Below the pieces are notes generated by a model. The model saw only the letters and a list, made by a program, of their open reading frames with translations. It was not told where the DNA came from and made no database searches. A stretch of DNA of 64,000 nt from Leucoraja ocellata (lineage: Eukaryota). Position numbers and translations under genes: made by a program. The stretch lies in NCBI GenBank assembly GCA_036785375.1, contig JAWMAR010000009.1, positions 8,928,001 through 8,992,000 on the forward strand, written 5' to 3'. Below, in pieces: positions 1-53,180 of the stretch (its first letter is position 1; each line of letters starts with the position of its first letter).

Positions 1-1095
1 TCAGGATGTAGATAAATTGAGACAATGGGCTGAGGAAAAGCAGATGCAGTTTAATTCAGATAAGTGTGAGGACTGCATTTTGTAAGACAAACTAGGGTAG
101 GACATGCAGCAACTGATAGAGAGCATTGTAGTAGAACAGAGAGATGTAGGGATCACGTACATTGTTTCATGAAGGTGACAACACAGGCACTCAGGTGGTG
201 AAGAAGGCATTCAGTAATCTTGCCTTCATCAGCCCTTGCTGTCTCCTCCCGTTCCTCAGCCCTCGGGCTGTCTCCTCCCATCCCTCCGCCTCCGCCTCCT
301 CCTTTTTCCTTTCTTCTCCCCACCCCCCATCAGTCTGAAGAAGGGTTTTGGCCCGAAACGTTGCCTATTTCCTTTGCTCCATAGATGCTGCTGCACCCGC
401 TGAGTTTCTCCAGCATTTATGTGTACCTTCAGTTTGGTATTGGGTACAGGAGTTGGGGCATCATGTAACCAATGTACAAGATGTTAGTATAGCTACACTT
501 GAGGGTTGAAGCACACAGTACTCCAACCTTCCAATGTGGCCTTTCCAACATCTTGTACATCAGTAACATAATGTCCCAATGTGCACAGTTCTTGTTGCCC
601 TGCTATATGAAGAAATTCATTAAATTGGAAAGGATGCAAAAATATTTACATGGAGGTTACCAGGTCTGGAGGGTTTGAGTTTAAAGAGGCTGGATATCTT
701 CCTGGAGCGTAGGAGGCTGAGGGGTGACCTTATAAGGGTGTACGGAATTATGAAGGGCATAGATAAAGAGAGTAACATCATTTTATATAGTCAACATTGG
801 GGGGGAGGGGCTCTAAAACATGCTATAGGTTTAAGGTGAAATAGGAAAGGATTAAAAGGGATCTGAAGGGTACCATTTTCCACACAGAATGTGAAGCAAA
901 TATGGAAGCAGCTGCCTGAGAAAATGGGAACAGCAGGTACTGTTCTGACATTTAAAAGATATTTGGACAGGTACATGGATAGAAATGGTTTGGGCCAGGG
1001 ACAAGCAATTGTGATTCTCTTGGTTAGGCAACTTGGTCAGCATGAACAGACGAAGCAGAATGGCCTGTTCCCATGCTGTATAACTCTATGACAGG
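1..1095 (+). mobile_element. Degraded CR1/HER1-type LINE 3' fragments, interrupted by a Penelope-like fragment (~230-430)
   Basis: RT C-terminal remnants (LTFKRYLDRYMDR) and a typical CR1 3' UTR/tail (ctgtataactctatga). Confidence 0.75.
335..362 (+). ncRNA. Minimal hammerhead ribozyme motif in a Penelope-like pLTR
   Basis: CTGAAGA-A-GGGT(TTTG)GCCC-GAAAC-GTT. Confidence 0.55.
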
Positions 1096-1314
1096 CCACA
1101 GCAATGCTCTACTAATTAGATGCCCATTTGCCACAAACCACCCAAGAACTAGGTGCCCTCCCTGGGCTGTTGAAGGCCGAGTCTGCAGTAAATAACCAGC
1201 GACTGGAACGTGACTGAATATGTTTGGAGAGAATTGTTGATCTCATCTGTGGTCCGTGTTCACCCCATGGACGTTCCTTGTGCATCAAGCAAGACTAGAG
1301 CTCGCAGGATATAT

Positions 1315-1572
1315 AGAAACATAGAAATTAGGTGCAGGAGTAGGCCATTCGGCCCTTCGAGCCTGCACCGCCATTCAATATGATCATGGCTGATCATCCA
1401 ACTCAGTATCCCGTACCTGCCTTCTCTCCATACCCCCTGATCCCCTTAGCCACAAGGGCCACATCTAACTCCCTCTTAAATATAGCCAATGAACTGGCCT
1501 CAACTACCCTCTGTGGCAGAGAGTTCCAGAGATTCACCACTCTCTGTGTGAAAAAAGTTCTTCTCATCTCGG
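1315..1572 (-). mobile_element. Young CR1-type LINE 3' end
   Basis: RRTFFTQRVVNLWNSLPQRVVEA...IRGYG, intact 3' UTR and (TTCTATG)-type tail. Confidence 0.9.
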
Positions 1573-2252
1573 TTTTTTTAATGGATACGTAAGATTTAGA
1601 AGACGTCCCTCCCACTAGACGCAGTACTCTACTGGTCCACGGACACTGCCAGATCCGTTTCATATTTTGTCTCTGATCATTATCCTCACCTGGTTATCAG
1701 CCTGTGGAATCCTCCCGTGAAGAACCTGCACTGACTGGCCCACCCCCGGCTTAACCCAGCCCACCCCGGCCTAACCCAGTCCACCCCTTGCCCTCTCTGC
1801 CTCATGTACCCAACAAGATGTTCTGCTGCTGATTGAAAGCTCATCTGGACCATGTGTTTCCTGACAGTGGGTGGGCCGCAGCCCACCATCACATCCACAG
1901 ATCCCTCTCCATCTACTCTGCCTGTGGACTGGGTAACAGAGCGGCAAGCAATACTGGTAGGGATGGAACATTTAGGTTTCTGTCCATCTCCCACCCCCCC
2001 CTCCCTAGTGCTGTCTGTGGTGTAAAAGAAACAAGTAGATAAGTGATTCAGCCAATTGGGCAATCATGTTCTGGGACCCTTGTGAGAGGAGTGAGCCGAA
2101 ATGGGAAAAGATGGAAGATGCCAATGAGTGTGGTTCGCTGAATTGTTATCTGCAAGGAATACGGTAGAAGTCATTAACCAGTAGAAATGTAAGCTCAATG
2201 CTGGAACGCTCAGTAACACACTGGGCCCACATCCGGCTCCAAACCTACTCAC

Positions 2253-2426
2253 CCAGCGTTGCAAGGACGTGACGAAGCTCGGCCCCCATCACCGTGCCGT
2301 CCCCTTCCTTGTCAAAGACTTTCAAACCTTCTATAAAATCTTCCAAAGTGCCCTGGTCCTTGCTTCTGGAGATGTGTTGCAGCATTGGTAGAAAGGTCTC
2401 AAAGTCCAACATCTTCTGGTTCATCT
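2253..2426 (-). CDS. MYL4: MYL4-like exon 4 ([20 protein letters not shown]...[27 protein letters not shown])
   Basis: 174 nt, cacacag/gtgagt boundaries; canonical ELC motifs. Exons 5-6 were not found in the window. Confidence 0.93.
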
Positions 2427-2839
2427 CTGTGTGGGGAGGCAAGCAGAAGTTCAGGCTGACCGCTAGGGCAGCTGTAGATAGAATGGGCTGTGGACGGACC
2501 ATGGAGCGGTGTTGGTCTTGTGTCCATTGGTGAGGCTGTTCCTGCACCTGTGTTCATGTATGTGCCCATTTGTATTTATCATTTAATTTAGTACCTTTAC
2601 CCCTCCACCTTTGTGATCATAGGTGTGTAGATACAGTACATGTGTGTCCATGTGAATGGGTGTTTACTGTTCAAACATGTGTTTATCTTATCCCCCATTC
2701 CGTCTCGTCCCACATCCATTTGAGTTGAACTGGTCGCTATTGCCCACACTTGGTGTCACGGCTGGTTTTATTACTGCCAGCGTTGGACGGTGGGTTGGAG
2801 GGTCATGATGGACGGGTGCTGCACATCCCCGAGACTGAC

Positions 2840-2989
2840 CTTCCGGTTTGGGTTTGTCGAGCAGCTTCATGACCTCGGCATTGGTGGGGTTCTGCCCAAG
2901 GGCTCGCATCACATCACCACACTGGGCGTAGGTGATCTTCATCTCACAGGACGGGGTCCTGTCGAAAAGGGCGAAAGCTTCCTTGAATT
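2840..2989 (-). CDS. MYL4: MYL4-like exon 3 ([40 protein letters not shown]...KPKPE)
   Basis: 150 nt, ctttcag/gtcagt boundaries; EF-hand ELC sequence inside ORF 2688..3050. Confidence 0.93.
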
Positions 2990-3069
2990 CTGAAAGTGGA
3001 GGCAAGAGGAACGGATTGGAACCATAGACGTGAGAAACATCAGACCACAATACAGAGCTAAACCTGAGA

Positions 3070-3971: not shown

Positions 3972-4704
3972 CTGAAACAAACAGAAGGACAGTGTTACAT
4001 TGCGAGGAGCAATTGGTGTTCTAATTTGGTGTTCATTTACACTGCATCTGCTTTCCTATCCACCCCACACTCCTTCATACTTCACACACCAAAACTGTCA
4101 GAGCCTCTGCCTGGAGCCACACCACTCTGAACTTCTCCTTCACTCCCAGCGTTTCCCTAGCTCCAGCTCTTTGCAACAAGCTGCTCATAGTTGACTTTCT
4201 TTGAGCTCTTCACCTGTTCTTACTCAGTCCCTCCTCTGATCTGAAGTGCACCATTTTACTTCTAATGTATAACTGTTACGAGTCATACAGCATGGTGACT
4301 GGATCTTCAGGCCTAATTGTCCATGCTAACCAAGATGACCATCTATCCTTGTTTCATTTGCCCGCTTTTGACCCGTTCATCTCTAAACCTTTCCAATCTA
4401 AGTACCTGTCCAAATGTCCTTTAACGTGTAATATTGTAGGTGTTAGCTGGAGTACTTAAGGTGAACGTCCTGCACTAACGACAGAATGCCCTACGGACAC
4501 TAGAGAAACCCCAACACAGCAAAATCCTCGAAATTCACTGGAAGGGTGTGTGAACCTACATCTGTGTTCTCTCCCAGGGCAATATCCCCTGGGGATTCTC
4601 AGTTGGCTAAGGCGGGCAGCAACGCCCATTGTTTGCACAACACCCGACTCTATGGGAAGAGATTACAGTTGGACAGAGAAAAGAATCAAGGATGGGTTCA
4701 AAGC

Positions 4705-4834
4705 ATTTAAGAAGGAACTGCAGATACTGGAAAATCAAAGGTACACAAAAAAGCTGGAGAAACTCAGCAGGTGCAGCAGCATCTATGGAGCGAAGGAAAT
4801 AGGCAACGTTTCGGGCCAAAACCCTTCTTCAGGC
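4705..4834 (-). mobile_element. Penelope-like pLTR fragment with intact hammerhead core (4805-4832)
   Basis: Reverse complement reads CTGAAGAAGGGTTTTGGCCCGAAACGTT followed by the family 3' tail. Confidence 0.7.
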
Positions 4835-5460
4835 AAACCCTACTTCAAAGCTTCCTGCCGCATCCCTCCTGATCACTGGGAATCCCTGCTCTCTGACTGC
4901 TCAAGCTGTAGAGGAAAGCATTCGCTATGGACTGTGGAGTCTTGCAGTCTACAGTCCCTCACTGGCCTCAGCCGTGACCTCAAAAGAAGTGGAGACCATG
5001 TTACATTTCTCAATAACCCAGATGGCAGATGTTTCTCACCTGCACTGTCCCTGCTCTGGGAGCACGTGATGGGAAACTGTAGCCATTCTTCACTATGTGC
5101 CCAACCTCTACTGATCATTATAATGTATCAAACTATAAACCAATTACAAAGTATCAAACAGAAGATAAATGGTATATAAAATCATAAGGGGCATAGATAA
5201 GGATAATGGCCAGTCTTTTCGCCAGGGTAGGAAGAGTCTAAAACTCGGGAGGTGATGTTTAAGATGAGGGAGGAAAATTTTAAAAGGGGCAATTTGTTCA
5301 CACAAGTTCACACTGATACACAGAGGGATTTTGAGATCCAAGTCTGCAGCTCCCTGAAAGTGGCAACAGAAGTAGATAGAGTGGTAAAAGATGGCAAACG
5401 GCGTGCTTGCCTTTACCGGTCGGGACATTCAGTGCAGGGGTTAGGAAGTAGGGGTCGAGT

Positions 5461-5488
5461 CTGAAGAAGGGTCTCGACCCGAAATGTC
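5461..5488 (+). ncRNA. Minimal hammerhead ribozyme motif in a Penelope-like fragment
   Basis: CTGAAGA-A-GGGT(CTCG)ACCC-GAAAT-GTC. Confidence 0.5.
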
Positions 5489-5954
5489 ACCTATTCCTTC
5501 TCTCCGGAGATGATGCCTGTCCAGCTGAATTATTATAGCTTTTGGTGTAGGGGTTAGGAGGTCATGTTGCAGTTTTATAAAGCACCGGTTAGGATCCGTC
5601 GCAACTCCGACCCCGCTGTCCGCCCGCTGCCTGGTGACCGGACACCGGGTAACAACTGTCGATGCCACAAGAGCGAGGACTCAGTCACCCCGGCTGCCCG
5701 TGGGGCCGCTCGCCCATTGACCGACAGCGGCCGAGGTCAGCGGACACCGGCCCCCGGCAGTCCCTACCTCACTCTCCGTCCCCCTCCGTCGACCAGCGGA
5801 GGCTGTGATGAGATCCGGGTGAGATGCGTTAACACCGTGAAGGGAGAAGACGGAGTGACGCTGTTTTCGCGGGCGGAGAGGTGACACATCAGGGGGGCCA
5901 CACACACAGTGCGGCTCTGGCAGAGACGCAAGCGGGCCCCGCGGCTCGTCCCCA

Positions 5955-7568: not shown

Positions 7569-7896
7569 GTCCTCATTGTCCCTCGTAGATCACTCGCCAC
7601 TGACCCTACGACCTGGTTCCCATTTAATCCCTGCCACCACAACCCTCCATTCCCCCCGAACTCACACCCGTCTCCATTGACTGCAAAATCTGGTTGTCAA
7701 AAAAGAAGACATAAACAAAGTGCTGGAGTAACTCAGCGGGTCAGGCAGCATATCTAGATAACATGGATCGGCGACGTTTCAGAAAAGGAGTTGGAGGAGG
7801 GGTGAGGCAAGCAGAACATTTCACAGAGGCAGAGGCCGTGGCTGTGGTAGTGAAGGCAGGCGTTCACCCGCCCTCACTAAAGGAGGATGTTGCCAG

Positions 7897-7927: not shown

Positions 7928-8589
7928 GTTGCCAGAGTCCCAGCAGGGGGACGGACGTGCAGGTCAGATTGTGCGTGAGCTGAGAATTCAATAAGAAGAG
8001 CTACTGGGAAGCAAAGTGCCGGAGAACCCGACATCTAGACAACATCTGTGGATAGAATAGATAAGAAATGTTGCAGGTCGGGACCCTTGTTCGGAATCAC
8101 CCAAAATGTTAGCTTACACTTACGTAGAACATGGAACAGTACAGCACAGGAACGGGCCCTTCGGCCCACATTGCTTGTGCCGAACACGTTGTCGAGCTAA
8201 ACTAAGCGTTCGCCTGTACACGATCCAAATTCCTCTATTCCTTGCATTTCCACGCAGCTATCTAAAACGCCTCTTAAACCCCACTATCGTTTCTGCCTCC
8301 AGCCCCCACTTCTGGCAACGCGCTCCAGGCATCCAATGGAATAAAAATAGACAAAGTGCTGCAGTAACTCAGCGGGCCAGGCAGCATCTCAGGAGAACAT
8401 GGATGGGTGACGTTTTGGATCGGGACCCTTCTTCAGAACCTTCACCCTTATAGTCAGACTCTTTATCCTTATATTGGATGAATCCCCTGGCCTAGAGGGG
8501 TAACATCCCATGGTGCTGGTGGAAAACAAGCGAGGAAATTGCATAGATTCTTCACCCCGCCATCTCCCCTCAACCCCTGACAAGCTTAT

Positions 8590-8790: not shown

Positions 8791-9939
8791 GGAGACAAAT
8801 TGGTACATAACTCAGTGAAATAAAAGACGAACACATTGAATGCCGAGCTTGTGTTTATGTGGAGGACACACCGATACAGAGCAGGGTTGGTCAGCCTGTA
8901 CAAGAGATCTCGTGTGCCGCGGACATGCATTGCTGAGTGACTCCAGCGCTTTGTCTTTTTTCTTGTCAACCTGCAGTTCCTAATTTCTACAGGGAGGATG
9001 CTGTTCATGTTATCGGCAGCCTGTCTTTGGCCAGCTGCCTGCTCAGCATTATGGAGGCTTCTTTCGCAGAGCACAGAGGGAGATGTTCTGCTTTTCAGTA
9101 AGAACTATTTACCATGCACGATGTAATCTAGCAACTGGTTGCCATGGCATTTTCTCACTATCTTATGGGCTACAAGCCAGGAATAGGGTGAGATTCACAA
9201 GCAAATCACAGGACTCTAAGCCTAAGTATAATCGGAATGTTTCAATGGATTGTCGAAGAGCCAACATGAAAACGTACTGTTTAATAAGGACGGGGAAGCT
9301 CACCTTTTCTCAATCTTTCTCCCTTAACTGTTACCTTTGTGTCACATAAACATCCTGCAAGTCTTCATATCTAATGGGAAATGATTCAGCATATGAAGAC
9401 CACATAACAAGGCACTTCAATCTTCAAGAATAGAATAAAGCCGGAAAATAGAGCAAATGACCAACACAGCATCATAAGCACAGATGAGAACCAGAAGATC
9501 ACGGAACAGGCAGCAGGGAGCAAAAGAGGGAACAAGTGAAGTAGAAATAAGAAGAATTGTCAATAAATATAAAATAATCCCCAAATCAGATTGTATCTGC
9601 CTTGCTATTGTCCACATACTGAACTTATCTATATCCCCGTGTAGACTCTTATCATTTTCCCATTCTGTCTTGAGACATCACCAAACCTAAGATTTTAGCA
9701 TATGGTTCTCTCATTCATTCAAATCATTGACACAGATGGTGAATAGTTGGGACCCCCCTGCGATACTCCACTAGTTACAGTCTGCCAACCTGAGAATGAC
9801 CTGTTTATTACCATTCTTTGTTTTCTCTCTGTTAATCAATTCTCTATCCATGACAGTATCTTACCACAATTCCATGTGGCCTGATCTTCTTGGCCATCCT
9901 CGTTTGTGGGATCTCTTCAAAAACACCTTTAAACTGCAT

Positions 9940-10565: not shown

Positions 10566-10772
10566 TGCGCTGAAGTACACCAGATCATCTGACTTCCTCC
10601 TCATCTACTCAACCAGATACATCCTCAAAGAATTCCAATAAACGAATAAAATGGAAACTGCATTTGACAAGTCCTTGTCATAGGCCAATCCTACTGTTAT
10701 TTTCTGTCTTAATGCCACATTCTTTTTCATAGATTCAGCAACTTCCCGGCGATCAACAGCAGGCTACTGTTT

Positions 10773-10897
10773 AAAAAAGAACTGCAGATGCTGGAAAAAT
10801 CGAAGGTAGACAAAAATGCTGGAGAAACTCAGCGGGTGAGGCAGCATCTATGGAGCGAAGGAATGGGTGACGTTTTGGGTCAATACCCTTCTTCAGA
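10773..10897 (-). mobile_element. Penelope-like pLTR fragment, hammerhead core mutated (GAAA->AAAA)
   Basis: Same family as 4705-4834. Confidence 0.7.
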
Positions 10898-16904: not shown

Positions 16905-17465
16905 TACACGTCACACAAACTGGAAGAAAAGCACCTGATATTGCCCTTGGTAGCATACAACCCATTGGTACCAACTATGAATTCTCCATTTTCATGTATT
17001 AACCTCCAGCCCCAGAGGCTATTTCCTCTGCCCCACCATCCTGATGCATACACATTTCTCCCACCACCTGTCACCCTGCTCCTTTCACCTTCTTCATGCA
17101 CATCCCCATCACCGAGCCCCACGTCTCTATTATACCCTTTCCCTTCCCTCCTGTTCCCTTCCGTCCATATAGTTCCCTCTAGTTTTGCATTTCATTCCTC
17201 ATCTTGTTTCGTTATCTCATTTTGTCTTTTTATTTTTACATTTAAGCTTTTGTCACTTACTCCACTCATCTCGCCTGTACCCACCTATCACTGCCAGGTT
17301 TTGTCCCACTCTATCAAAGTTTCTCCCCCTACTCTAATCTGCCTTAATAAGGTCCCGACGATCTTTTATTTTTCTCTACAAATCCTGCCTGACCGGCTGC
17401 ATTCCTCCAGCACTCTTTGTTATTTACTCAAGATTCCAGCATCTGCAGTTCCTTGGGTCAACAGT
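16905..17465 (+). mobile_element. Penelope-like element 3' part (endonuclease C-terminus remnant plus pyrimidine-rich pLTR)
   Basis: HKLEEKHLI..LGSIQP-like remnant followed by the family tail ccagcatctgcagttcc; a similar remnant lies at ~33260-33810. Confidence 0.65.
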
Positions 17466-18222
17466 TCAATCCTGTTTGCTCTACAATAAATGGAAAGTTT
17501 CAAAACCTTCATTGTGTCTAAAGTTACATGAAAGTTCAAGGCGTTTTATCGATTGATCCTGAACTTTATCTGATGTGGTTTTTGCATCCAGGTCAGTCGC
17601 CCAAATCAAGAAGGGTCACTCCACTCATTACAGGGTTCCAGGTCGTACATTATCCCTGACCATTGTACTTCTTATCTTACTGGCAGTCTTTACTGGCAAA
17701 GCATCTCAAGCTTCACCAAGGAAACCCACTATTTCAACCCTCAAGTGGCAGATGAAAGAATTTGGAAATGTAACTACAACATCAGCCACTGTTTGGAAGG
17801 CACTTTTCAAAATAAAAGCTTGTATATTAGTCAGAAAAGATCTACTTCTCTGGAAACCATTCCGTTGCCATATACCAAGACTATTTTCCTACAAATAATC
17901 CATTGATTGATCTTAAAACAAGCTTTTTGTCTCTAATCCATTTTTCTTATATCACTTTCTTCACAATACATTCCACCATCCATGTACTGCCAGCAACATT
18001 TTGTGCCTACCTTTGATATAAACCAGCATCTGCAGTTTTTTCCTGCACGCCATCATCAAACTTCCCCACTGCCCCTCACGACTACCATTGAATTCAGAGA
18101 TCTTATCCCTGGTTTCACTAACATTTGTTGCAGCATGTATTTTATCCCTTCAATTTATTGGTTTGGAACAACTAAATTACCTTAATATTGTTATCTTCTA
18201 ATTGTTAACATGTGGAGCATCA

Positions 18223-23145: not shown

Positions 23146-23157
23146 GTGCGGGCTTAC

Positions 23158-23329: not shown

Positions 23330-24944
23330 CTGAAAAGAACAAAATAAGTTGATTACTTAACCATGCTGATGATACAGAGACTGGGCAGGCTGGAATGTTT
23401 ACACCAGTGAAGGTTGAGGGGAGATTTAACAGAGGTGTGCAATTTATTAGAGTTAAAAAGCAGGAATTTAACTAAAGGAGGCTAGAAAAAAAGAACCGGA
23501 GACAAGGCAACCAGGTAGGAAGGAACTGCACATGCTGGTTTAATCCAAAGATAGACACAAAAGCTGGAGTAACTCAGTGGGTCAGGCAGCTCTCTGGCTA
23601 AAAGGAATAGGTGGCATTTCAGGTCAAGACACTGCTTCGGACAGAGAGATAGATTCTTGATTAGTACGGGTGTCAGGGGTTATGGGGAGAAGGCAGGAGA
23701 ATGGGGTTAGGAGGGGGAGATAGGTCAGCCATGATTGAATGGTAGAGTGGGCTTAAAGGGGAACAGGAAACAAGAGATAAAGATAAAGTGATATAGAGAG
23801 ATATAGAACAAATGAATGAAAGATATGCAAATAATAACAATGATCAAGGAAAGGTGGAGCCCACAATGGTCCACTGTTGTCTGATCTTTTATCGGTGGGG
23901 GATTCGGTGCACTGCATCTAAGGACAGTGGAAAGTTTAGGGAAGTGTAACTCATTAAGCAGGCTCAATGATGAGACAGCTTGATCCTTTGACTTAGTGAA
24001 TTGAGCCCAATAAACACTTCTTTCCTTGCCAGGTGCCCCTGCTTTGTGCAATGTACATTGGGGATCTCGTTACACGAAGATGCCACGTGCAAACTTATAT
24101 TGTTTCTCTGCGCTTTACAGATCTGCAAATGGTGTATTAGGGAATCCCTGCAGTATTCATTGTCACCACCTACACGCATTTAGTACTTGCACCATGCCAC
24201 AAGTTCAATTTTATCTGTGGTAACGTTTCACCTCCTTAACAAGCAAGTGTCTACTTCTGCCTTTAAAATATTCCACGATTCTTCTTCTACTGCCCCTAGA
24301 GTTCCAAAGATTCACGAAATGAAAAAGCACTACTGTGTATAAAACCCTATTCACAAAGTTTCAAGGGATGCATGATTGGGATTGTAGTCCATATGGAGTA
24401 CACATCGCCTGAAGGAGGAGACTCCTCCTTCAATCACTGCCCTCACTATGTGGCAGCTTAAACATTTACAACCAAATACAGCCAGTCCGAACTCAGCTTT
24501 CTCCGGAGATGGTTACCAGCACAGAGTTTGGTCTTCAGCCAATTACTAATGTCATTCAATGTGAATCAAATATCTGCATCAGGGAGAAAACACTCCAGTG
24601 GCTAGAGACATACTTTCCACAAAGGAAGACGAGTGTGGATTTCAGCGAACAATCATTCGCACCACTGTGTTCAACGAGTGTAACCACCACTCCTTCCCAT
24701 TGCTGAGTTTACTGCCATCAACATCCTGGGGAGTCATGATAGGAGAGGGAAGTCACCATTGATTACAGATTCAACTGGACCAAACACCATGGTGACATAG
24801 TGACAAGGTGGGAATATAATATACTCTCATCCTGCCTTTCTACAAGCATGGATTAGGGGTGCATTGGAATACTCTGGATGAGTGCAATTCCAATAATATT
24901 AAACAATATGCTGAATAAAGCAGCCCACTCAATTGGTACCTCAT

Positions 24945-32415: not shown

Positions 32416-34655
32416 AATCAATGCCATGTCCCTTTCAACAGTACACCCACCTTCCCTGTTAAAGTCTACTTTTTACCGCCTCTTTCCACAGATGCTGCCT
32501 GACCTGCTGAGAGTTTCCAGCATTTTCAGTTTGCGTTTCTGATCAGAGATGATTTTAAGAATAAAGAAAATGCAGATCATCAACAGCTTTGGCTCGGACA
32601 GTACTGGACAATTCCATGGAAATGCTGATCGCTGGACGGTTGTACTTATCCAGATTTGGGGCCATGCTCTATCCTCTCAGGTTCTAATATGGGTTATTAA
32701 CTCCTGGCTAGGAACACATCTTTAAAGAAAGGTAATCTTTGTATGAAAAAAAATTAAATGAAATCGCAATCTTAATCCAATAAATTGTAAAGCTTTTGTT
32801 GTTTTGTCTGGTTTCTTTTCTATCACATTTAGCCACCTCATCCTGACATGTTGCACTATTCTCAGCTGACAGCATCTTTGTCTTCGGCTTCCAAGCTGGA
32901 GCTCAGAGGTGTAGCAGTGTCACCTGCCAGTTATAATTTTTCTCACTTGGAAATTGTCAAAACTCTTGCAGTTCTGCATCTCAATCAGTAATTCAATGTC
33001 TGGCATATGGTTTCGGTGCAGAACTAGTGATTCTAGATGACACATCCAAAAGATTAAATTACCTCGGTAACAGGGGAGTTTAAAGTTAATGTCAATAAAG
33101 TCAGATGTCTTAAAAACTTACCTGCAAAGGAAATTTTTTGTCTCAAGATTTAAAGTGATATTTACAGTTAACTGCACTCTGAAATGGCTCTGCACTCCAC
33201 TCAGTACAAACGCAATGTAGGACACCGTAATTCAACCAGTAAGGGCAGTTCAGAACACAGTTGTCTGCCACTTTAATTTTCAGTCTCATTTCCACTCTAA
33301 TCTTTTTGTCTAGCCTCCTACACTGTTATAACAAGGCCCAATGCAATCTTATGGAATTGCAACTCAACTTCTGCCAGACATTTTGCAGCTATCTCAACTC
33401 AATATTAAATTCTGTAACTTTAGATAACTTGCTTTTTCTCAGCATCAGAACTGGCTGGTTCTGCCGAGTGTCATCCATTGTTTGTTTTGTCTCCCTGTTT
33501 GCACAGCCTGACCTGCCGATATGACCCATCGCTCTGCACTTTGCAACTTTTACATTGCTTTCTTCCAATTGCCCTCATTAACCCGACTAAGTGACCTCAT
33601 CCATAATCCATCAGATGGCAACCCTAATTTTACCCCATCATGGAATATTTATTTTATCCACCCAACTCTCTAGCAAATTTATACATAATGTGTTTTTTCA
33701 CTTACTAAATTCTGACAAAGGGTCTCCATCTTCAAATGCTAACCACTAACCTGCTGAATGTTTCAGCATTTTGTTTTTATTTCAGATCTTCAACATCTGC
33801 ATTTTTTTGATTTTCTACAAATCCTAGAAATGTGTAAAAAGGTAGCTGCTGCACAAAAGCACAGCCCACAAGAAGGTTCTGAAGCTTAGCATTGTGAAGG
33901 ATTTTGCCATGGGTCATGAGAGGATTCAGATATACAGCAGAATTTGGCAGAGCTCCCTTTCCTTGGGCTTAGGTGCTTAGTTGAGCAACTGCAATCAATT
34001 ATTTCCCAAATTTCAAAGTGTTTTAGGATTAGTATTATGGATTTAGTACAGCAAAATGAACTGCCCCGGAAACAACAATGGAAATTTGTACAGGTACAAT
34101 GGAAAAGGTGTAAATGCAATGACCTATATGGATGATAGCAAGAACCGAGAGATGATAAATCAAAAACTTTAACAAGCTGGTAGTTTTTTTTTCCAGAAAG
34201 GCAACTGGTGCAACACAAATACATAAATCTAAAGCAGTTTAAATGGGTAAATGTGTACAAATCTTGCAAAGAAAGCCAAAACTAGACAATCAACCAGTCA
34301 GCGTCAAATCCAGAGTTGTGAGAAATTGCAACTTCCTCCACACAGACTGCCTGAGGTAGAGGAAACTGGATAAGTACAAGGACATCTGGATAGCGTGGGG
34401 TGAAAAGGAATGCAAGGAGGGAGGGTCATGGGTTGGGCTAAACGCCCCTTTTTTACACAGTGTATAACAAACTTGCCCCATGCAGAAACAAAACCAAAGT
34501 TGCTATGAAATGTGAACACCAAAGTAAAATGCTTTGCAGCAAATGTCTGACATGCAGGAGATCAAACCTTATATTTCCTGTAGTCAGTCACATACCACTG
34601 CACAAAGATTCACATGCAATCAACACAAGACACCCTTTTGGTGGAGAGTACTCAC

Positions 34656-35522: not shown

Positions 35523-38500
35523 CTGGCAACGGATCTCCTTGAATGTTCTTCATGATTTTTTACGATCAAACTAATGAGTTCATTTCTTGCCTTATACCGT
35601 GCAGTTCAATGTCTACTCAAGCCCTGAAATTACTTAATGACTCTGGACAGGGAGTTCCAAAAGACACACAACAATTCTAACTCATCTCTATCTTTTATCT
35701 TGATTGTAAATCAAAAAACTGCAGTTTGTTGATTTTTGAGCAAACCTATAAGTGTTGAATACAGAAAATGCTGGGAAAACACAATAGGTAAGCAGCAGCT
35801 GTGGACAGAGACAGTCAACGTTTTAGGTCAATAATCCTTCATGAGAACTGCAAATATGAATTCTGGTTGGTGGGAAAGCTTGGAGACTACACACAAAATC
35901 ACTTATGGTTGCCCAATTCACACAGTGCTTTTAAAGTTGTCTACCTGCCATGTAGTGGAAAAAGCAATCAGCTCTAAGAATTCAGCCAGTCAAACAGCAT
36001 TCGTGGAGGGAAACAGAAAGTCAAGATTTCGGGTCAACACCCAGTCCAGAGGAAAGGTCTTGACCTGAAATGGCGTCCATTCGTTTCGCTCCACAGATGC
36101 TGCTTGACCTGCCGTTCCTACAGCAGATGGTATTTCGCTCAGGATTCAGCATTCTTAAGATGCTACATAAACAGTCATTGCACAATAGTACACAGATTTG
36201 GTGTTAATATATCAGCAAGGATGTCATCCAATGGCAAGGGTGCAGAGATTTATGGACCGAGCTGCTGGAGGAGGTAGTTGAGGCAGGTACTATCACAGTG
36301 TTTAAGACACATTTGGATAAGTACATGGATAGGATAGGTTTACAGGGATATGGGCCAAATGCATACAGATTGGACTACTGTAAATGGAGCATGTTGGTCG
36401 GTATGGACAACTGGGCTGAAGGGCCTGTTTCTACGCCATATGACTCCATATCCAACTAACAGAAAATAGCCACCCAGGATAAATTAGTAATTTTCATTGC
36501 ATTAGGTTACTTATGGGGAGCCACAGGTGCTAAAGCCCATGACACAGGATCAACTGTACTGTATACAAATCCACTGATGATATAAAGGCAGGCGAGTTAG
36601 TAAATTGTGAGATGGACACAAAGAGACTGCAGGGTAAAATAAAAGGTATATTAAATGAGTAAGCAGATGAAAAGCACCGTGGGAAATTATCAGGTTTTCC
36701 ATTTTGGAATGGAAAAAAAAGTATATTATTACTTAAATGGAATGAGACCACAAATATTGCAAAGTGATCTGTGAAATCATGTACATGAAACATGAAGTTA
36801 GCATATCGCGGCAAATAATTAGGAAGGCTAGTTGCACGTAGTATAAGAGTAGCAACGTTTTAATGCAACTTTACAGCATGGTGGTGAGACCACACCTGGG
36901 GTGATGTAGGTAGTTTTGCTTTTAATATTTAAAGAAGGATGTACTCAAACGAAAGGCAGCACAGTCATGGTTCACTAGGTCGATGCTCTGGATGAAAAAG
37001 GTCATTTACAAAGGAAGTTCGACCAGGTTGCACTGATATTCAGTGGCGTTTAGAAGAATTACAAGTAATCTGATTGAAACATAAGATTCTAAGTAGGATT
37101 GACGGGATGGATTTAGAGAAGTTGTTTATTTTAATGGGGATATCTGGAACTGGGGGGCAGAGCATAATTTCAGAGTAATACGAGGCAAAGATCTTAGACT
37201 TATACAGAACAGAAAGTGGTCCTTCAACCCACCAGGTCAGCATCTTTCCAACTTTGCCTATTTAAGGGCAAAAGACAAACTCTGGAAGAACTCCAGGTGA
37301 ACCAGCAAGCCTTTTTGGGGTTTTTTTGCTCTAGATGTATTGTGTGTTCGCTTTTGTTTCATTAGTGTCTGACCAAGTAGGTGAAGGAGGAATTTCTTCC
37401 CTCACAAGACCATTACAAAATATGAATGAGGTTGGGCCATCTGGCCTCTCAAATCTCCCCTACCATTCAACATGATCTGCTTTATGCTGGCCTCGGTTCT
37501 TCCTCTGGGAGAGCCACACAGCCCTCAAATCCACAATCTTACAAAAATGCACCTTCACCTTTATTTTAATGATAATGCTTAAATTTTCTGGGGTAGAGAA
37601 TTCCAGAGATTCACCACCCTTCACAAGACAATAATTGTATTATAAATTAATAGATGGTGTTACTTTAGTGCTTGTTGGAAATTTTTGTCAAAACACTATC
37701 GTAATCCCACAAGATGAAATGAAAGTCTGTATCAAAAGCATCATATATTTGGAAAATATTAAACAATTACACTTGAAAACTAATATATGAGCACATTATA
37801 CAGGCCATCCAAGTGTGAGTGTTTGCTTTGAACTTACTTTGTTAGAAAATGACACACAAAGATTCAAAAGGAATAATTTTGAAGAAAAACGTGGGCCAAA
37901 TTATTTCATTCCTTCATGATCTGAAGCAAGTTGTTTTTCCAAATGTCACTCAACACAACTTGATTTGCCAATGGTGGTGTGAAAAAGCAATTTTGGTACT
38001 GAATAAAATGACACGGTGTAGGCCATGAAAACCTTTTATTGAAGCGCCCTGGACAACCTGTGCTACATACATCTGTTATCTGTGACAGACATGGACACGA
38101 TTGTGCATTTTCCTGTTGACTTTTTAAACTGTGTCACTATCTGATGTGCCATTACATAATCTTGAACCATAAGAATACACTCGAGTCATGCTACTCAGGA
38201 ATATGGAACCATCAATATAATGCAATTGCACATGATTATCAATTCAAAAATTACTACCACATGTACCATAATAACCGGTAATGCAGTTGGAGGAAATTAC
38301 TTCATCCCTCAGATACTGGTTATCCTATCTGATCTACGTTGGACTATTGCAACGTTTAAGATGCAGTTAGACAGTTACATGGATAGGACAGGTTTGAAGG
38401 GATATGGACCAAACACAGGCAGGTTGGAGCTTCAACCGACCCGATCGCGGGAGCTTCAATCACCCTGACGTGGGAGCTTCGATCGCCGGCTGCGGGAGCT

Positions 38501-42389: not shown

Positions 42390-43800
42390 GGGAAAGCTGG
42401 ATTGTCACTAAACAGGCACTTCCATTAGGAGATCTAGTTTAAAACAGAAAATTGTTATAAGAACATCGGGAAGAAAAGACAGTTATGCCATGTGTGAATA
42501 TGTGAGACAAGAGTGCTGGAGTAGCTCAGAGGCAAGGCAGCATCTCTGGAGAACATGGATAGATGACGTGTCTGGTCGGGAGTATTGAGAAACATAGTGA
42601 CTTTGTTTTTTAAAGTCCAAACATCCCTGATGGAGGCACCACAGGTGGGTAGGGTGGTGAAGGTGGCTCTACTTCCTTCTTTAGTTTACTTCCTTCATTA
42701 CTCAGGGTGTAGAACAGAAGTGCATGGAGATTATAAAATATTGATTAGGCTATAATAACTGGGGTGCTCTGCATAGTTCTGGTTAACGCACTATTGGAAA
42801 GGCTTGATTGCACTGAAGAAAGTGCAAAGGAGATTCAAAAGGATGTTCCCTGTGATGGTGCTTTTCAGGTATGAGGAGGACACATTGAGGGGTAGATTTC
42901 CTTGGACTACAGGAAATCGAGGAGGGACCTGATAAAGTTGTACAGAATGATGAGAGGCATACATAGGATAATGGTAAACTTTCCCCCGTGGTCAAGCTGT
43001 CTAAAACTAGAAGACATAGCTTTAGGATAATGGATAAGAGATTTTGAGGTGATCTGGAAAATACTTTTTTTTCCAACTGAGTGGGTGGTTGGAATCTGGA
43101 ACCCACTGTCTGAGGGGTGGTGGAGGCAGATATTTAAGAAATATTCAGGTGACTATTTATTTTTTTCTACCTTGACTCCATCTTTTCTCTCCTGCTCTGG
43201 TCCCTTCCCACCTAAACCTTCGCTACTTTGAATTTCCAATTCCTGGTCCTAACTACTGTCTTCACCATGAACATACAACCCTTCTACATCACCATCTCAT
43301 GTCAGAAATGTATAAGGGCTCTCTACTAATTGTCCAAGGGTGACCATGAGCTTTGCATTGCCTACGACTTCATCTCTGATATTGTTCTGTGGCACTGTTC
43401 GTAGAGACGCTGCATCATAGACATGGGTTTAATGTTGACCCTGGGTGTTCTGTGTGGAATTCTCCTCCAGGTTCTCAGTTTCCTCCCAAATCCCCAAGAT
43501 GTACGGCTGGTAGGTTATGCATAGTCGAGTATTTGCTCCAATCAGCATCAAATGGTTGAGAGCTTCAAGCTCCATGGCGTGACTCCATCTACAATTCATG
43601 CTGCCATCATAATCAAAGAATTATCGCAGTCATCGGCCCTTCTATTCCTAGGTATCATTTAGACTTTGCTTTATTTTAGAGATACAGCGTGTAAATAGCC
43701 ACTTCGGCCCACCGAGACCGCGTTGATAAGCGATCACTCCATACGCTAGCACTATCCTACACATTAGGGACAATTTACAGAAGCCAATTAACCTACAAAC

Positions 43801-43951
43801 CTGGAAAGACACAAAATGCTTCTGAAGAAGAGTCTCGACCCAAAACGTCACCCATTCCTCCCCCCCAGAGATGCTGCCTGTCCCGCTGAGTTACTCCAGC
43901 ACTTTGTGCCTATCTTAGATTTAAACCAGCATCTGCAGTTCTTTCCTACAC
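43801..43951 (+). mobile_element. Penelope-like insertion nested in a SINE, 11-bp TSD AACCTACAAAC
   Basis: Short inverted pLTR piece plus direct pLTR with a mutated hammerhead core; TSD at 43790-43800 and 43952-43962. Confidence 0.75.
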
Positions 43952-45767
43952 AACCTACAAACTTGTATGTCTTTGGAATATGAGTGGAAACCAGAGCACA
44001 CGGAGAAAACCCATGCAGTCACAGGGAGAACATACAAACTCCGTAAAGACAGCACCCGTAGTTGGGATCGAACCCGGGTATCTGGCACTGTAAGGCAGCA
44101 ACTCTACTGCTGCGTCACTGTGCCGATTTTCTATTTGGTGGTGTTTCTAATTGATCCAAGGTGATATTTAGGTAGCTGGGCTACAGTTCCCAGGACACAT
44201 TCTATGCATTTCATATGAATGCATTGTGAGTGCTGCACAAGTCCTCCATCACCTTAATATGCTATTGACCATTGGTGGCAGTGTGCCTGCTATTTTTTCT
44301 TCCAGACTTTATTTATAAAATGCATATGCAATCCATCCAGGATGGAAGCTTTATCACATTTGGTCTGTTTATTTATGAATTCACTTGTTTTCTCCTCCTC
44401 CCTCATCTCATCATCCCACCTTCTATTTCACGTAGATACTAAAGCAAAATTCAGGCATTATGGGGGGTGGGGGGGAAAGAAGAGAGAGAAAGGGTTTGTG
44501 TTCCTAGAAAATGCTCCACATTGCAATTTTCCTTATCATGAAGCCAAGTATCTGTGCATATGTCAAGAAGGGAGTTGGAAAAAGAGTGATTTATTTACTT
44601 TTTTCACATGAAATCCATGAGATAAAGTTTCATTTCTTATCAAAAACCTTTGGCAATGGGTAAATATCAGTAATCCAAACATAACATGGGATTACCTGCA
44701 ATGATTTGACATTTCTGCCATCTCTAACGATACTAAACTGACAATCCCTGAATATACCTGCTTCCATTCCAGTATGAGGAAGGGTTCTGAGCAGAAAGAC
44801 ACCTATCCATGTACCTGTATTCCAGAGATGCCGCCTGACCCACTGAGTTACTGCAGCACTCTGCATCTTTTATTTGTAAACCAGAAACTACAGTTCCTTA
44901 TGTCTCCATTCTTATCTGTTTTTGCGGGGTGTAGGGTTTAAAGTAATATTTTTTTACCTTTATAATTTAACTTCTAAATTCCACTTACGGTTGTTTTTTT
45001 TTACTTCTTTACCAATCCCTTTGTATCTTCTCTCACCTTAGACGCCTCAGCTGATTTGGACCTAGACGGCAATTGTTCTCTTTATCTTTACTCAGCCACG
45101 GACTCTCACAAATGTCCAGTTTGTTTTTCCTTGCAGCAGAACATTTCCTGCATTCCATTTCAAATGTTCACCGACTTTTAGCTATTTTATCCTCCAAATT
45201 TAAGTCTCAGCCCCTCAAAAACCAGTTTTACTCCAATCTATAAATCTGTTTTTTTGTCATGTTTATACCTATCTTCACCCTAAAGCACAATATATTATGA
45301 TTTCTATTGGCTCTATGTTGTCTCATCTTCACTTCTATCAGCCTTGATTAATTCTTTATTAATCAAAGCTTCTGGCAGATGTTGAGGTGTGAATCACTTC
45401 TGTTGAAGTGAGGGGAAATCAGATCACCCTAAAAGAGTAAAAGATGTAGTGGTACCCAGGAACAACCCTGCAGCACACAGTAACATTACATATTGCCAGT
45501 ATCAGGCATACATCCACAGATTTTCCAAAAAAAATATCAGAGGCAGCAATGCTCAGGAGAATGGGTGGTGGGGTGACACCCAGACGCACACCAGCTCAAA
45601 TAGTACGGCCCTAAGAACAAAGATATATAATTTGGCCTGTTTTACACTCCACACGAAGAGACGACGTTTGAAACATGGAACATCAGGATTATCATGGACA
45701 ACCCTAGTCAGAATTGACCCGATTGCCATTCTGCTTAAATTGCAGATAAAATTACAATGCGATACAC

Positions 45768-46430: not shown

Positions 46431-47899
46431 TGACCTGCTTCTGGAATCAGAATCCAAAAGAGAAAGTCTGCTTTGCTGGCATGAATAGGTTACTCAGGTG
46501 TATTTTCATCCTGAGATGCTGTCTCACTCGTTGAGTTACTCTCGCAGTTTATGTCTATCTTTGGTATAAACCAGCATATGTAGTTCTTTATTTCTCCAAA
46601 ATGGCACAACTGTTTGAGAGGTAATGACTACAGGAGACTCCTGAACAACTTGGAGGTCATCCACCTCTTAATATACCTGGTGTGCCAACATGGTACAATC
46701 TATGACATTTTCCACATCCCCAATTCTCAATGCAGTCAGAAAAGATTTGTAGCTGGGCACATTTCCTGTAGGCAGTCACCACGAAAATGGAAATTCCCTG
46801 ATCTCCCAAATCCAGCAGGAGGAGCACACCACTGCCCTAGCTTCTATATCCTTTTTTCCCAGTCCCTTCTACTGAAAATAAAACCCTAACTAATCACTTC
46901 TCAGTCCCTCACCAGACCCAGGCAGCACTGATTCATATTAAGTCACCTCCTATGTTTGACTGCCTCCAGCTTCCTTGTTTTATACCGAGCACTGTGTGCA
47001 AAGCTCTGCAGACAAAAACTCATTTTTAAAAGGATTTCATAATCTAAATATCTAACCATCATTTTAGACCCATTTCTTAGCTGTAACTGCCCTTCCTTTA
47101 TTCTTGTTAATGCTCGTTTCAAGTTCAGTTTATATTTCAGCTTACATTTCTTTTCCTTTTCCCCTTACTTGCTTAAAATCAGTGCCCCTTCTTCGAGTTC
47201 AGGAAGGGCCCATCTCCAGTATCAGAAATAGTGCATTAATGCATTAACTCTTTCCCACAGCAGCTCATGAATTCTCCTGATCCAAGTACTTATTTGCCAA
47301 TTTGTACATGCTCTTGGTTCGCTTTTAACTTGGATCCTATTACATGATACTTTTTCAAAAATAACTTATTTCTCTTCCTACCAATGCTGTTTGTTTCAGA
47401 TTGGTCACAACAGCACATTTTCCCTCCATTTAGGAGCTCTTTTCCAGCAGCCATGAGGGTAACACAACCCTTAGAATTTGTGTTCTTGGTTATAGACCAT
47501 TATTTTTTTCCCCCAAAAGCAACCTGATTGTAGTCCCCTACATTCTATATTTCTATCTATTCCATCCTTGTTCAGATAGCCTTCTTGGCCAGGTACATGG
47601 GATAACATCTAGTTTTTAAAATAGTGCAATAGGAATTCTTACATTCATCAATATAATGTATGGATTGCAAATGTATTAATCTATTGTATGATCACACATC
47701 AATAACCTGTGAACAAAGATACAGTCAAGGTTTCCCTCAGACCACAAAGCTGTAGATCTCAACTTTGTTTAGTTTAGTTTAGAGATATAGCACGAGTCTG
47801 CACCCACCAGCAATCCCCGCATATTAACACTACCCTACACACACCAGGGACAATTTTACATTTACACCAAGCCAATTGACCTGCAAACCTGTACATATA

Positions 47900-50280: not shown

Positions 50281-50420
50281 GTAAGGTGTTAAACTCCGGC
50301 GATGTGCTTTTCCAGTGGTCAGGCTTCTCGGGCCTACTTCTGTTCAAGGCCTAGAGTGGCGCTTGGTCAGCCCACCCCAACCTCAGGCGCCCCACAATAC
50401 CTCCCATCTCCACCATCAGT

Positions 50421-50448
50421 CTGAAGAAGGGTCTAGACCCGAAACGTC
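50421..50448 (+). ncRNA. Minimal hammerhead ribozyme motif (best-preserved copy) in a Penelope-like pLTR (~50390-50550), DDX42 intron 1
   Basis: CTGAAGA-A-GGGT(CTAG)ACCC-GAAAC-GTC. Confidence 0.6.
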
Positions 50449-51559
50449 ACCTATTCCTTCTCTCCAGACATGCTGCCTGCCCCGCTGAGTTACCCCAACA
50501 TTTTGTGTCATCTTTGGGTTTAAACAGGCATCTACAGTTCCTTCCTACACATCCACAGCCCGGCAGCGGTTCCACTCCCACTTCACTCCTGGCAGTGAAC
50601 ATAAGGTAGGCAAGGGCAGGGAAGGAACGTGGTACCATAGAAGTATACTGCAGGGTTAGAAGAAGGGTTTCGACCTGAAACATCACCCATTCCTTCTCTC
50701 CCGAGATGCTGCATATCCCGCTGAGTTACTCCAACATTTTGTGTCTATCTTCGATGTAAACCAGCATCTGCAGTTCCTTCCTACGCATGATATTGTCGGT
50801 TCCACAACAAATATAAAAACATATTGGCACGAAAGAGAAATCATATGGTCCGTGTGCCAGTACTACTTCCTTATTTCACAGCAAACACATTTCTAAAACT
50901 TCCAACCAAAAATGTAGGTGGAGAAATGCCACTAAAAGGAAAATACTATCCAGCACGATCACATGTAAACATGATCCTCTTGCAACCTACCCCCCCCCCC
51001 CCCCTTCCCGGGGGCATTGGACTTTGTCTACTAGGCTACAATGCAGAGAACTATTTTCTGTATGTGCCTTCCTTTTGTTGTATCTATTATACTTGAGGTT
51101 GAACTGACTATATGGTATATCTTATCTGTTTGGATAGCATGCAAAACAAAGCAGTTTGCAGTACCTCTGTACATGTGATGATAATAATAAACCTAAACTC
51201 AATGTTGTTGCTTTGTAAAAATCTTAATGTTTCAATGCTCTGCTCCACTGAGTACTATTATGTAATATACTATAGTATGTATATATATGTTTATATATAG
51301 TATAGTGAGTAACATACATTATGTCTTGTGAATCCATCCTAGTATGTCGTACCTATATAATTAGCTGCCTACCAGCAGTTCTGATCAATCTACATTATCA
51401 CACTAATAATTTTTTGTTAATTGTCATAACTGATGATGTAGAATAGTATTTTTCTTAACATTTGCATTCTGGTGAGCAGCTGCTATGTAATCTCTTGCCT
51501 TTTTAATGTACAGGGTATATTTCCTTTTTCTCATTTCAAACGTATTTATCCAGGGCTTT

Positions 51560-51805
51560 GAGGAAAAGCATTTTCATGCAGAGAGTTGTGAATCTGTGGA
51601 ATTATCTGCCTCAGAAGGCAGTGGAGGCCAATTCACTGGATGCATTCAAAAGAGAGTTAGATAGAGCTCCTAGGGCTAGTGGAATCAAGTAGTATGGGGC
51701 AAAGGCAGGAACGGGGTACTGATTGTGGATGATCAGCCATGATCCATTTGAATGGCGGTACTGGCTCGAAGCACTGAATGGCCTCCTGCATCTATTGTCT
51801 ATGTA
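51560..51805 (+). mobile_element. CR1-type LINE 3' end
   Basis: QRVVNLWNYLPQKAVEA remnant and 3' UTR. Confidence 0.85.
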
Positions 51806-51811
51806 TAATAA

Positions 51812-52107
51812 TATATTTTATTGGCATTGCACAGAGGTACAACGAGATTTGGTATGCAGTTTCCATCCAATGTAATAACTTAATTAGCTTAAAATATAGA
51901 CACCCAGAGAAACATGATTTAAAAAAAAAAAAAAAATTAAAACACTATAAAGCGCAAATAAACATGATCCTCTGTGCAGGCTCGATGTGCGACGTGACTA
52001 TCCGAGGGAGACAGTTCATGCAAGGGCCGGTTCAGAGCAGCTATAGCTCTGGGGATGAAGCTGTTCCTAAGTCTGGAGGTGCGGGCGTAGAAGGCCTTGT
52101 AACGTAT
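51812..52107 (-). mobile_element. Rex1/Babar-like LINE 3' end
   Basis: Minus strand RYKAFYARTSRLRNSFIPRAIAALN and terminal AATAAA. Confidence 0.7.
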
Positions 52108-52235
52108 CTATGTATTCTGAAATTGTGAGAGATGGACTAAAGGGCCCTTTTCTATATGTCATGTAAGATGAATCTATGATTTCAAAGTTTTATGAAGTTT
52201 CAGTAATTCTCATTTTGTGTTTATGCAGCTAAACA

Positions 52236-52453
52236 ATGAATTGGAACAAAGGAGGTGGTGGTGCAAAGAGGGGTTTTGGTTTTGGTGGCTTTGCTATTGC
52301 TACGGGGAAGAAGGAAGAACCAAAACTACCAAAGACATCACACTCTGTATTCGGTTCACTGGGGCCAGGAGGTTATGGAAAAACCCAACCAGCTCAGACA
52401 CCTTGCTTCTATAAAGTAGGATCTAAGCGGCCAAACTTCGATGAAGAAAATGC
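52236..52453 (+). CDS. DDX42: DDX42 coding exon 1 (MNWNKGGGGAKRGFGFGGF...KRPNFDEENA)
   Basis: Diagnostic DDX42 N-terminus; acceptor at 52228/52229, GC|gtgagt donor. Confidence 0.95.
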
Positions 52454-53180
52454 GTGAGTATTTTAAGGAGCTGTTTGCTGATTGTGATCACAATTCAAAT
52501 GGGAATATGTGAATGAAATAACTTAATTACTTCCAAGAGCAAGGATTGTGACTAGGAAGGAACTGCTGATGCTGGTTTAAACCGGATAGTCACAAAATGC
52601 TGCGTAACTCAGCGGGATAGACAGCATTTCTGGAAAGAAGGAATGGGTGACGTTTCGGATCAAGACCATCCTTGTGACTGACTAGTTTGAAATTCACGGC
52701 TGAAAATTATTTTCATTTCGTTCTTTAAAATGTTTAGTTCTGCATTGTGTATCGTGTGTGGTCTTTTCCCCTTATCATTTCCTGGATACAATAGATAATG
52801 CCTGTACGTGAAGGTAATCAATGCAAGCTGGGCACCTATATCATAGTAATATATGTTTTTAGTATATTAATCATTCAATATCTTCAATGAGAATTTCAGA
52901 GGGAAAAGATAAACCATTTCCAGAGATATTTTGCTAAATTGCGAGCTGAAAATTGGAAGATACTTTTAATGTGGAGAAATGCAAAGATAATTAGTGGGAA
53001 TATATAGGGAATAGTGTGTAATATGGGGTGTAATAGAGGAGAGTGAGGTGAGTCACAGGCTGAAACCATCCAAATAATGAATCCACACTTCTACTTTAAG
53101 CTTGCATCTAGTTCTCATCAACTTATTTTTAATTACTGCTAGTATTAAGAAATCTTTACTCTGTTGCTTGGATCGTCTAG

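Follow-up and report, generated by a model that had tools for sequence, protein, structure and literature searches.

Why should a single stretch of a skate genome contain several complete hammerhead ribozyme motifs, each lodged in a short, dispersed piece of repeated DNA? The stretch in question, hereafter the window, comprises 64,000 nt of Leucoraja ocellata DNA (assembly GCA_036785375.1, contig JAWMAR010000009.1, positions 8,928,001 to 8,992,000), and positions are counted from its first letter. An initial annotation made from the letters alone had noted a ~130-bp repeat occurring more than 15 times, ascribed its 5' part to the minimal hammerheads of Penelope-like retroelements and regarded the family as non-autonomous and 'retrozyme-like'. 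Our analysis leads us to view the repeat as the pseudo-long terminal repeat (pLTR) end of a Penelope-like element (PLE) that bears an endonuclease and is probably of the Neptune type, with passive decay of the inserted copies, and we put the probability of this reading at roughly 0.8. The family has likely inserted many times as short pieces that are now decaying. Statements on published systems below refer to the accessible parts of the cited sources.

The repeat is frequent and heterogeneous. A profile built from 13 copies, which match it by construction, gave 27 nhmmer matches in the window at E < 1, of which 26 pass E < 0.1 and 24 pass E < 1e-4; the reversed window yielded a single weak match (E 0.68). 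The 26 copies at E < 0.1 are those counted throughout, a match at 15120 (E 0.65) being excluded; they bear out the number of occurrences first noted. With a unit of ~135 nt, they span 2,599 of the 64,000 bases (4.1%). As their pairwise identity ranges from 60 to 95%, there must be several subfamilies differing in age, of which the two young ones, A and B, are 73-85% alike. The 5' ends are variable. The 3' ends fall into two classes ~35 nt apart, with 19 of the 26 copies ending at +118 to +132 and seven at +81 to +100 (core position C3 taken as +1); these positions come from local alignments, with an error of several bases, and are uncertain in old copies. Among proteins, a translated copy matches only a gene model of Leucoraja erinacea in which the repeat is included, which indicates that the family occurs in skates.

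The copies with a complete hammerhead core, four of the 26, and the short motif next to the core on which much of the following hinges are these:

235..430, + strand: young copy of subfamily A, with a ~100-nt pyrimidine tract, TCAGT, a complete core (335-362) and a short 3' end
4703..4832, - strand: young copy of subfamily A, complete core at 4805-4832, starting at C3, with a long 3' end; 95% identical to the 335 copy and flanked by a repeat of 8 bp
5458..5551, + strand: copy of subfamily B, complete core at 5461-5488 with U15.2, short 3' end, 11-bp target duplication
50403..50552, + strand: copy of subfamily B, complete core at 50421-50448, predicted cut after 50448, long 3' end
50416..50420, + strand: TCAGT, initiator-like but also readable as a 3' splice site, abutting the 5' side of the core; 5'-junction hot spot

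A general minimal-hammerhead descriptor has exactly four matches in the window, 335(+), 4832(-), 5461(+) and 50421(+). They are the very cores that the initial annotation had called intact, and the seven that it had called decayed are all present as well. Across 300 dinucleotide shuffles, the mean number of matches was 0.01 when helix I had to reach at least 2 bp (three shuffles with one match each) and 0.12 without that condition; an accidental match to the full descriptor is very unlikely. All four have one extra base after A9, a G10.1-C11.1 pair, a 4-bp helix II and no loop 3, in keeping with the proposed minimal type I hammerhead of the Penelope pLTR kind. Two features named at the outset hold for part of the family. 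The vestigial ACGT palindrome (positions 15.2-16.2) is present as ACGU in three of the four cores and as AUGU, with a U-G pair, in the one at 5461, and the 2-bp helix I is found in all four young copies, whereas 6 bp are predicted in the older copy at 35843(-). Rfam covariance models, a check of the kind suggested at that stage, returned no hammerhead family for the window, and seven unrelated weak matches at E <= 5. Of six pattern scans over collections of viral, metagenome and prokaryote sequences, five had no match, and we dismissed the one match of the sixth as chance given its GC-rich coding context and absent core.

Minimal hammerheads are found in PLEs across metazoans, including the fish elements Xena, Poseidon and Neptune (Cervera and De la Pena 2014, PMC4209133). 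Those share with the skate motifs the type I core without a helix III loop, the extra base after A9, the G10.1-C11.1 pair and the palindromic 15.2-16.2 positions, and they likewise occur mostly as single dispersed motifs from truncated elements, with some pairs on opposite strands. Helix II is shorter in the skate (4 bp, against 7-8 bp in Schistosoma), as is helix I of the young copies (2 bp, against the usual 4-5 bp, Drosophila virilis also having 2 bp). The density is far higher here, with four complete motifs in 64 kb compared with about 4,000 per genome in the coelacanth and 9,000 in Xenopus (PMC4209133). Two of the supplement files of that study contain no shark or skate terms.

What ties the repeat to Penelope includes its longest copy (16926-17458, + strand), the parts of which are as follows:

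16926..16976, + strand: broken remnant of the C-terminal E...N motif of a GIY-YIG endonuclease, with Neptune-type spacing and one frameshift; stop codon at 17001-17003
17004..17339, + strand: pyrimidine-rich tract, probably 3' untranslated region (UTR) or pLTR body, between the open reading frame (ORF) remnant and the hammerhead
17340..17458, + strand: old decayed hammerhead and shared 3' part, end of the longest copy (nhmmer E 3.5e-10), 63-75% identical to other copies

On one strand, this copy thus presents an endonuclease-like motif, a stop, ~340 pyrimidine-rich bases, a decayed hammerhead and the shared 3' end; the order displayed by the family is endonuclease-like motif, stop, pyrimidine tract, TCAGT, hammerhead core and ~100 more bases. 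Read across the frameshift, the motif is E-x2-L-I-x2-L-x-S-x2-P-x-G-x-N. It occurs with all eight positions once in the window, at 16926, and in none of 150 shuffles, while seven of the eight positions are found 0.15 times per shuffle. Its pattern and spacing match the terminal helix and loop of the GIY-YIG domains of Neptune and Naiad, but not of Poseidon (PMC8557442, Fig. S2). Endonuclease-bearing PLEs of the Neptune clade have a C-terminal E-x2-hydrophobic-I-x2-L-x-S/T-x2-P-x-G-x-N, after which come a stop and a terminal repeat with a hammerhead (Craig et al. 2021, PMC8557442). The skate copy retains only the last 17 motif residues, with no RT, Zn-finger linker or GIY-YIG boxes seen, so the comparison involves the endonuclease spacing only. 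The Naiad endonucleases share the motif, but they are N-terminal and their elements have no hammerheads (PMC8557442).

The mode of insertion also points to Penelope. Exact flanking repeats of 8-14 bp, touching the 3' end and usually accompanied by a short 5' filler, are found in five of the 15 copies examined, and Adineta PLEs are described as having target duplications of 8-10 bp. The fillers at 43822 and 63782 resemble inverted pieces of the element, a head-to-head pair occupies 35970-36142, and opposite-strand joints at 50415-50423 appear in RNA reads and contigs. PLEs can carry an optional 3' 'tail' of 30-40 bp (10.1101/2021.04.23.441226), which has been equated with two internal start sites of the reverse transcriptase (RT) (Frangieh et al., PMC11167929), and our two 3'-end classes agree with such a tail. 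The Poseidon element PAc of Anolis carolinensis likewise extends ~85-100 nt beyond its cut site in the 3' direction, its two ends delimiting the tail (Frangieh et al. 2024, PMC11167929). PAc differs in having a Poseidon-type endonuclease, as opposed to the Neptune-type spacing of the remnant, and in that its protein-assisted activity has been shown, whereas any activity here is putative; a hot spot of 5' ends at an initiator is not described in the accessible part of that work. The Penelope link, so far inferred, has gained the endonuclease motif and the insertion signatures (truncation, 3' ends, duplications and inversions), and it appears to be a good one, resting on a motif and not on an RT. 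The repeat works like the pLTR end of an endonuclease-bearing PLE, and very probably is one.

How, then, did so many short copies arise? Their 5' ends provide a clue, and for this the remaining copies are needed:

7680..7782, - strand: copy beginning at C11.1/G12, without the 5' half of the core
8010..8093, - strand: decayed copy, its first base being the one before C3
8345..8437, - strand: copy with G12 lost, beginning one base before C3, short 3' end
8931..8983, + strand: 3'-only fragment (E 8.2e-5)
10768..10897, - strand: copy with G12 lost, long 3' end
17993..18048, + strand: 3'-only fragment, profile match
23512..23642, - strand: decayed copy, long 3' end
32481..32526, + strand: coreless fragment, profile match
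33746..33801, + strand: weak old fragment (E 0.037)
35708..35848, - strand: old-subfamily copy, predicted 6-bp helix I, decayed core
35970..36042, - strand: inverted, 5'-truncated partner starting at stem II, head-to-head with 36044..36142
36044..36142, + strand: old-subfamily copy, direct member of the head-to-head pair
42504..42579, - strand: decayed copy, short 3' end
43821..43953, + strand: copy that has lost G12, target duplication of 11 bp, 5' filler resembling an inverted element piece
44769..44899, + strand: decayed copy, profile match
46504..46590, + strand: coreless fragment, profile match
50659..50787, + strand: copy without the first core bases, long 3' end
52549..52681, - strand: decayed copy starting at TCAGT
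54675..54772, + strand: coreless copy, 14-bp target duplication
63460..63521, - strand: weak old fragment (E 0.098)
63797..63906, + strand: copy with its start close to the cut site, target duplication of 13 bp, inverted piece as filler

Twelve of the 26 copies start within -7 to +3, three further upstream and ten further downstream, and one start is unclear. Under a uniform null, such clustering has a binomial P of ~1e-6 (12 of 25 copies), with the interval chosen after seeing the data. The copy at 63782 was left out of the count because its apparent start consists of target duplication and filler. Junctions in RNA reads of a relative and in contigs gather at the same place. Reads from two bulk runs and one single-cell run, together with the X15 contigs, were placed on 50230-50620 at 80% likeness; the RNA libraries are oligo-dT and single-cell ones only, and fragmented, and none is listed for the exact locus. 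Family records number 30,255 (X23) and 30,114 per 12,895,792 in the bulk runs, about 0.2%, and 32,440 of 17,596,208 in the single-cell run, and 86,610 X15 contigs were placed. Among the latter, loose ends whose flanks are unlike number 772 before 50417, 1,237 before 50418 and 1,242 before 50419; 1,659 loose ends lie before 50416, some of which continue into pyrimidine-rich family sequence. The bulk runs have loose ends at the same positions, with 2,119-3,023 reads each.

The bases at the hot spot, TCAGT, resemble the initiator consensus, and in the consensus upstream of the loose ends a weak TATA-like run precedes the A by ~30 bases. In Adineta, an initiator-like TCACT with a TATA box has been described in the pLTR (PMC3846280). 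As 12 of the 26 copies and thousands of junctions begin within a few bases of TCAGT, the short units are likely run-off copies, reaching from the internal RT start to the 5' end of the RNA. We give even odds to transcription starting at TCAGT as the explanation for the hot spot. It is more tentative, and in our view somewhat doubtful, that each short unit is a full run-off copy of the ~135 nt with which a Penelope mRNA begins, from the initiator TCAGT to the internal RT start. Of note, the low-agreement consensus 5' of the 50419 junctions ends in G in all three runs that list it, and a G also precedes the 5458 copy. It is possible, if very weakly indicated, that this G is cap-derived and untemplated.

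Several results weigh against the pLTR interpretation and the start site. The endonuclease link stems from one 17-residue motif, chosen after the peptide had been seen, and the subfamily of the remnant is an older one (63-75% identity). It has no match in the protein word index, Pfam, PHROGs, 1.84 billion representatives or the ESM Atlas, although these negatives are weak, the query being a decayed piece of 17-30 residues. Aligned with the upstream tracts of the young copies, that of the 16926 copy shows no significant similarity, its scores being equalled in 623 and 434 of 1,000 shuffles. No run of RT motifs occurs in the window, and no RT, full GIY-YIG domain or full-length element was seen in the 64 kb. 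No pile-up of RNA ends is seen anywhere in the reads, which thus give the putative start site at TCAGT no direct support, and the starts of five window copies, at 0 or +1, lie a little 3' of where the reads peak. Finally, the read and contig tables hold the best-supported rows, with 760 loose-end, 120 joint and 30 letter rows lying beyond them.

The hot spot invites a different explanation that leaves the identity of the family unchanged, namely that it marks an RNA-processing or RT-stop site, for example a 3' splice site or a structure-induced stop followed by microhomology joining. Indeed, the same bases read as the end of a polypyrimidine tract followed by CAG, four window copies begin exactly at the base that follows the AG, and the in-frame copy of the Leucoraja erinacea gene model starts at about that point. 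There is a precedent in the Penelope of D. virilis, an intron of which ends at the 5' end of helix I (PMC4209133; PMC2377424). However, splicing should join a common upstream exon, and none is seen, as the flanks at 50418 and 50419 agree only at 0.31-0.46; 50420 is absent among the best-supported loose-end rows of every run, and many junctions retain 1-3 bases of the putative intron end. We find this explanation unlikely. Another question is whether the hammerhead is merely a fossil or an accident of sequence, no family member being able to cleave any longer. Helix I has just 2 bp in the young copies, but this is also true of D. virilis Penelope (PMC4209133). Stem II, 88% paired across 15 copies, changes by one-sided G-U replacements, with a single two-sided cell in a divergent copy; the covariation check proposed earlier thus yielded no credible compensatory change among these copies. 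In-context folding predicts stem II at P <= 0.01 in eight of nine copies, and in a predicted cofold of two copies the stem II strands pair between the molecules instead of the palindrome. Only one of nine Xenopus dimers cleaved (10.64898/2026.07.22.740005), and cleavage is dispensable for PAc insertion in vitro (PMC11167929). Nevertheless, both young subfamilies, though only 73-85% alike, have retained the full core, the extra base, the G10.1-C11.1 pair and the palindrome, the changes between these subfamilies preserve pairs as U-G wobbles, and the shuffles make a chance match very unlikely. On balance, complete loss of activity strikes us as rather unlikely, yet a serious contender. As for the misfolding, we considered an evolved 'off-switch', a predicted hairpin between the core and the pyrimidine tract after the cut, and rejected it as a specific feature, since shuffled tails disrupt stem II likewise (median P 0.02-0.09; 21-222 of 300 shuffles equally stable).

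The remaining alternative is the one closest to the 'retrozyme-like' label, an independent lineage resembling short interspersed nuclear elements (SINEs) or retrozymes, with its own masters or tandems, hammerhead-processed monomer or circular RNA, and copying in trans by a Penelope RT. The sharp 5' boundary, the several subfamilies and the large excess of copies over ORF-bearing ones would suit it, and a 2026 preprint derives animal retrozymes from pLTRs (10.64898/2026.07.22.740005) and reports retrozymes in one chondrichthyan. Like the skate repeat, animal non-LTR retrozymes are small, non-coding and pLTR-related and have a type I hammerhead (PMC7229834; 10.64898/2026.07.22.740005). Their hammerhead is canonical, though, not minimal, and they consist of tandem units each with a complete hammerhead (PMC7229834), whereas the 15 rows of the tandem-repeat (TRF) output for the window include no array of the repeat. 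Some tandems do exist in contigs and reads, as 134-nt head-to-tail joints (50552 to 50419) in at least 14 of the 86,610 X15 contigs and as a 66-nt partial tandem from G12 (50441-50506) in 220 (X23) and 278 (X24) joint reads, but the latter is devoid of the CUGA half and partial tandems are also normal in PLEs. Moreover, the unit begins on the 5' side of the core and extends ~100 nt past it in the 3' direction, unlike monomers made by cleavage at the cut site. RNA ends do not pile up at that site in three fragmented libraries of the relative; this is a weak negative, and PAc likewise shows no RNA-seq ends at its cut site (PMC11167929). G12 decays like the loop CpG, so the inserted copies appear to lose their core about as fast as the loop: over four runs, reads and contigs have G12>A at 14-23%, C11.1>T at 11-18%, G16.2>A at 11-18% and loop CpG C>T at 16-22%. 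Taken with the missing stem II compensation, these observations tell against the retrozyme-like label, and we hold a separate lineage to be quite improbable. The CpG decay proposed for the loss of GAAA is correct for CAAAA, which loses G12, but the change from CGAAA to TGAAA affects C11.1 and keeps GAAA.

The 66-nt derivative is abundant in RNA (1,527 and 1,836 loose ends) and looks like a minisatellite born from the element; the copy at 7680-7782 may be compared with it. In the single-cell run X21, 88% of the family signal is on one strand. We did not take element transcription as its cause, as it is antisense to the hammerhead and its loose ends are rich in T, which would be expected of internal oligo-dT priming. 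The bulk libraries seem to be unstranded (about 12:8 in the exon control).

How would a pLTR of a Penelope-like element give rise to such units? The RT-endonuclease of PAc nicks its target and starts reverse transcription inside uncleaved RNA, ~60-100 nt 3' of the hammerhead cut site, and its hammerhead is protein-assisted (PMC11167929). We propose that the protein of the skate element would similarly attach to its RNA on the 3' side of the hammerhead, prime on the nicked DNA of the target and copy toward the 5' end. Most cDNAs would end at or before the RNA 5' end, probably the start site at TCAGT, thereby giving inserts of 85-135 nt, and only read-through RNA would generate longer copies reaching into the UTR and the end of the ORF. 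The hammerhead would be functional, if at all, for the master element only, as a dimer held by the ACGU palindrome or together with the element protein. The dispersed monomers would then be passengers in host transcripts, probably non-cutting ones.

The host genes of the window are those for a myosin essential light chain (-), STRAD alpha (-) and DDX42 (+). RNA depth falls from ~20 to 1-3 at 50286, the end of an exon. From this end and the gene layout, the complete cores at 4832(-) and 50421(+) are both sense-oriented in introns, of the myosin light chain gene and of the DDX42-like gene (its first intron), respectively. The segment at ~49900-50280 is GC-rich and lies between the STRAD-alpha-like (-) and DDX42-like (+) genes, apparently arranged head-to-head. 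In the Leucoraja erinacea model mentioned above, a fermitin homolog 1 (P0001), the repeat is translated in frame at residues ~188-228, reflecting either exonisation or a gene-model artefact. One frame is open across the whole copy at 50421-50552, probably by chance, and no long RT or endonuclease protein carries it. The idea of an ORF starting in this frame found no support, the sole match being that host gene model with its embedded copy.

Other mobile elements surround the family. A Tc1/mariner transposase fragment (14367-14753; PF01498, E 2.7e-20) is flanked by similar segments of ~228 bp (13957-14185 and 14831-15056), probably terminal inverted repeats. A second dispersed repeat of ~620 bp is present in two copies (9952-10562 and 45804-46427), and a zf-RVT-like fragment (11649-12068; PF13966, E 1.4e-4, below the cut-off) is a remnant of a different non-LTR element. 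At 453-579, a long imperfect hairpin has weak Rfam miRNA-like scores, and two fragments resembling long interspersed nuclear elements (LINEs) apparently meet there in opposite orientation. The copies at 235, 5458, 23642 and 54675 appear to be inserted into other repeats, presumably LINE-like fragments too.

The presence of hammerheads in Penelope termini was already described in 2014. What the skate adds is scale, with the family accounting for some 4% of the window and some 0.2% of the RNA reads in a relative, and a clean 5' boundary. We found no account of this skate family, or of a 5' hot spot at an initiator, in the literature searched, and Repbase or Dfam may hold the family. The pile-up of 5' junctions at one initiator-like motif fits the 2024 finding that a Penelope RT starts inside its RNA. 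It bears on why Penelope elements leave many solo termini, and on whether their copying needs the hammerhead at all, as the copies here would derive from uncleaved RNA. If our proposal is true, internal initiation alone would suffice to turn the element into a factory of SINEs, and records of its start site and RT start sites would number around a million in the genome. Assuming a genome of 2-2.5 Gb and extrapolating from this one window, ~10^5 complete minimal hammerheads would reside in host pre-mRNA, where they may pair in trans via ACGU or be activated by the protein of the element.

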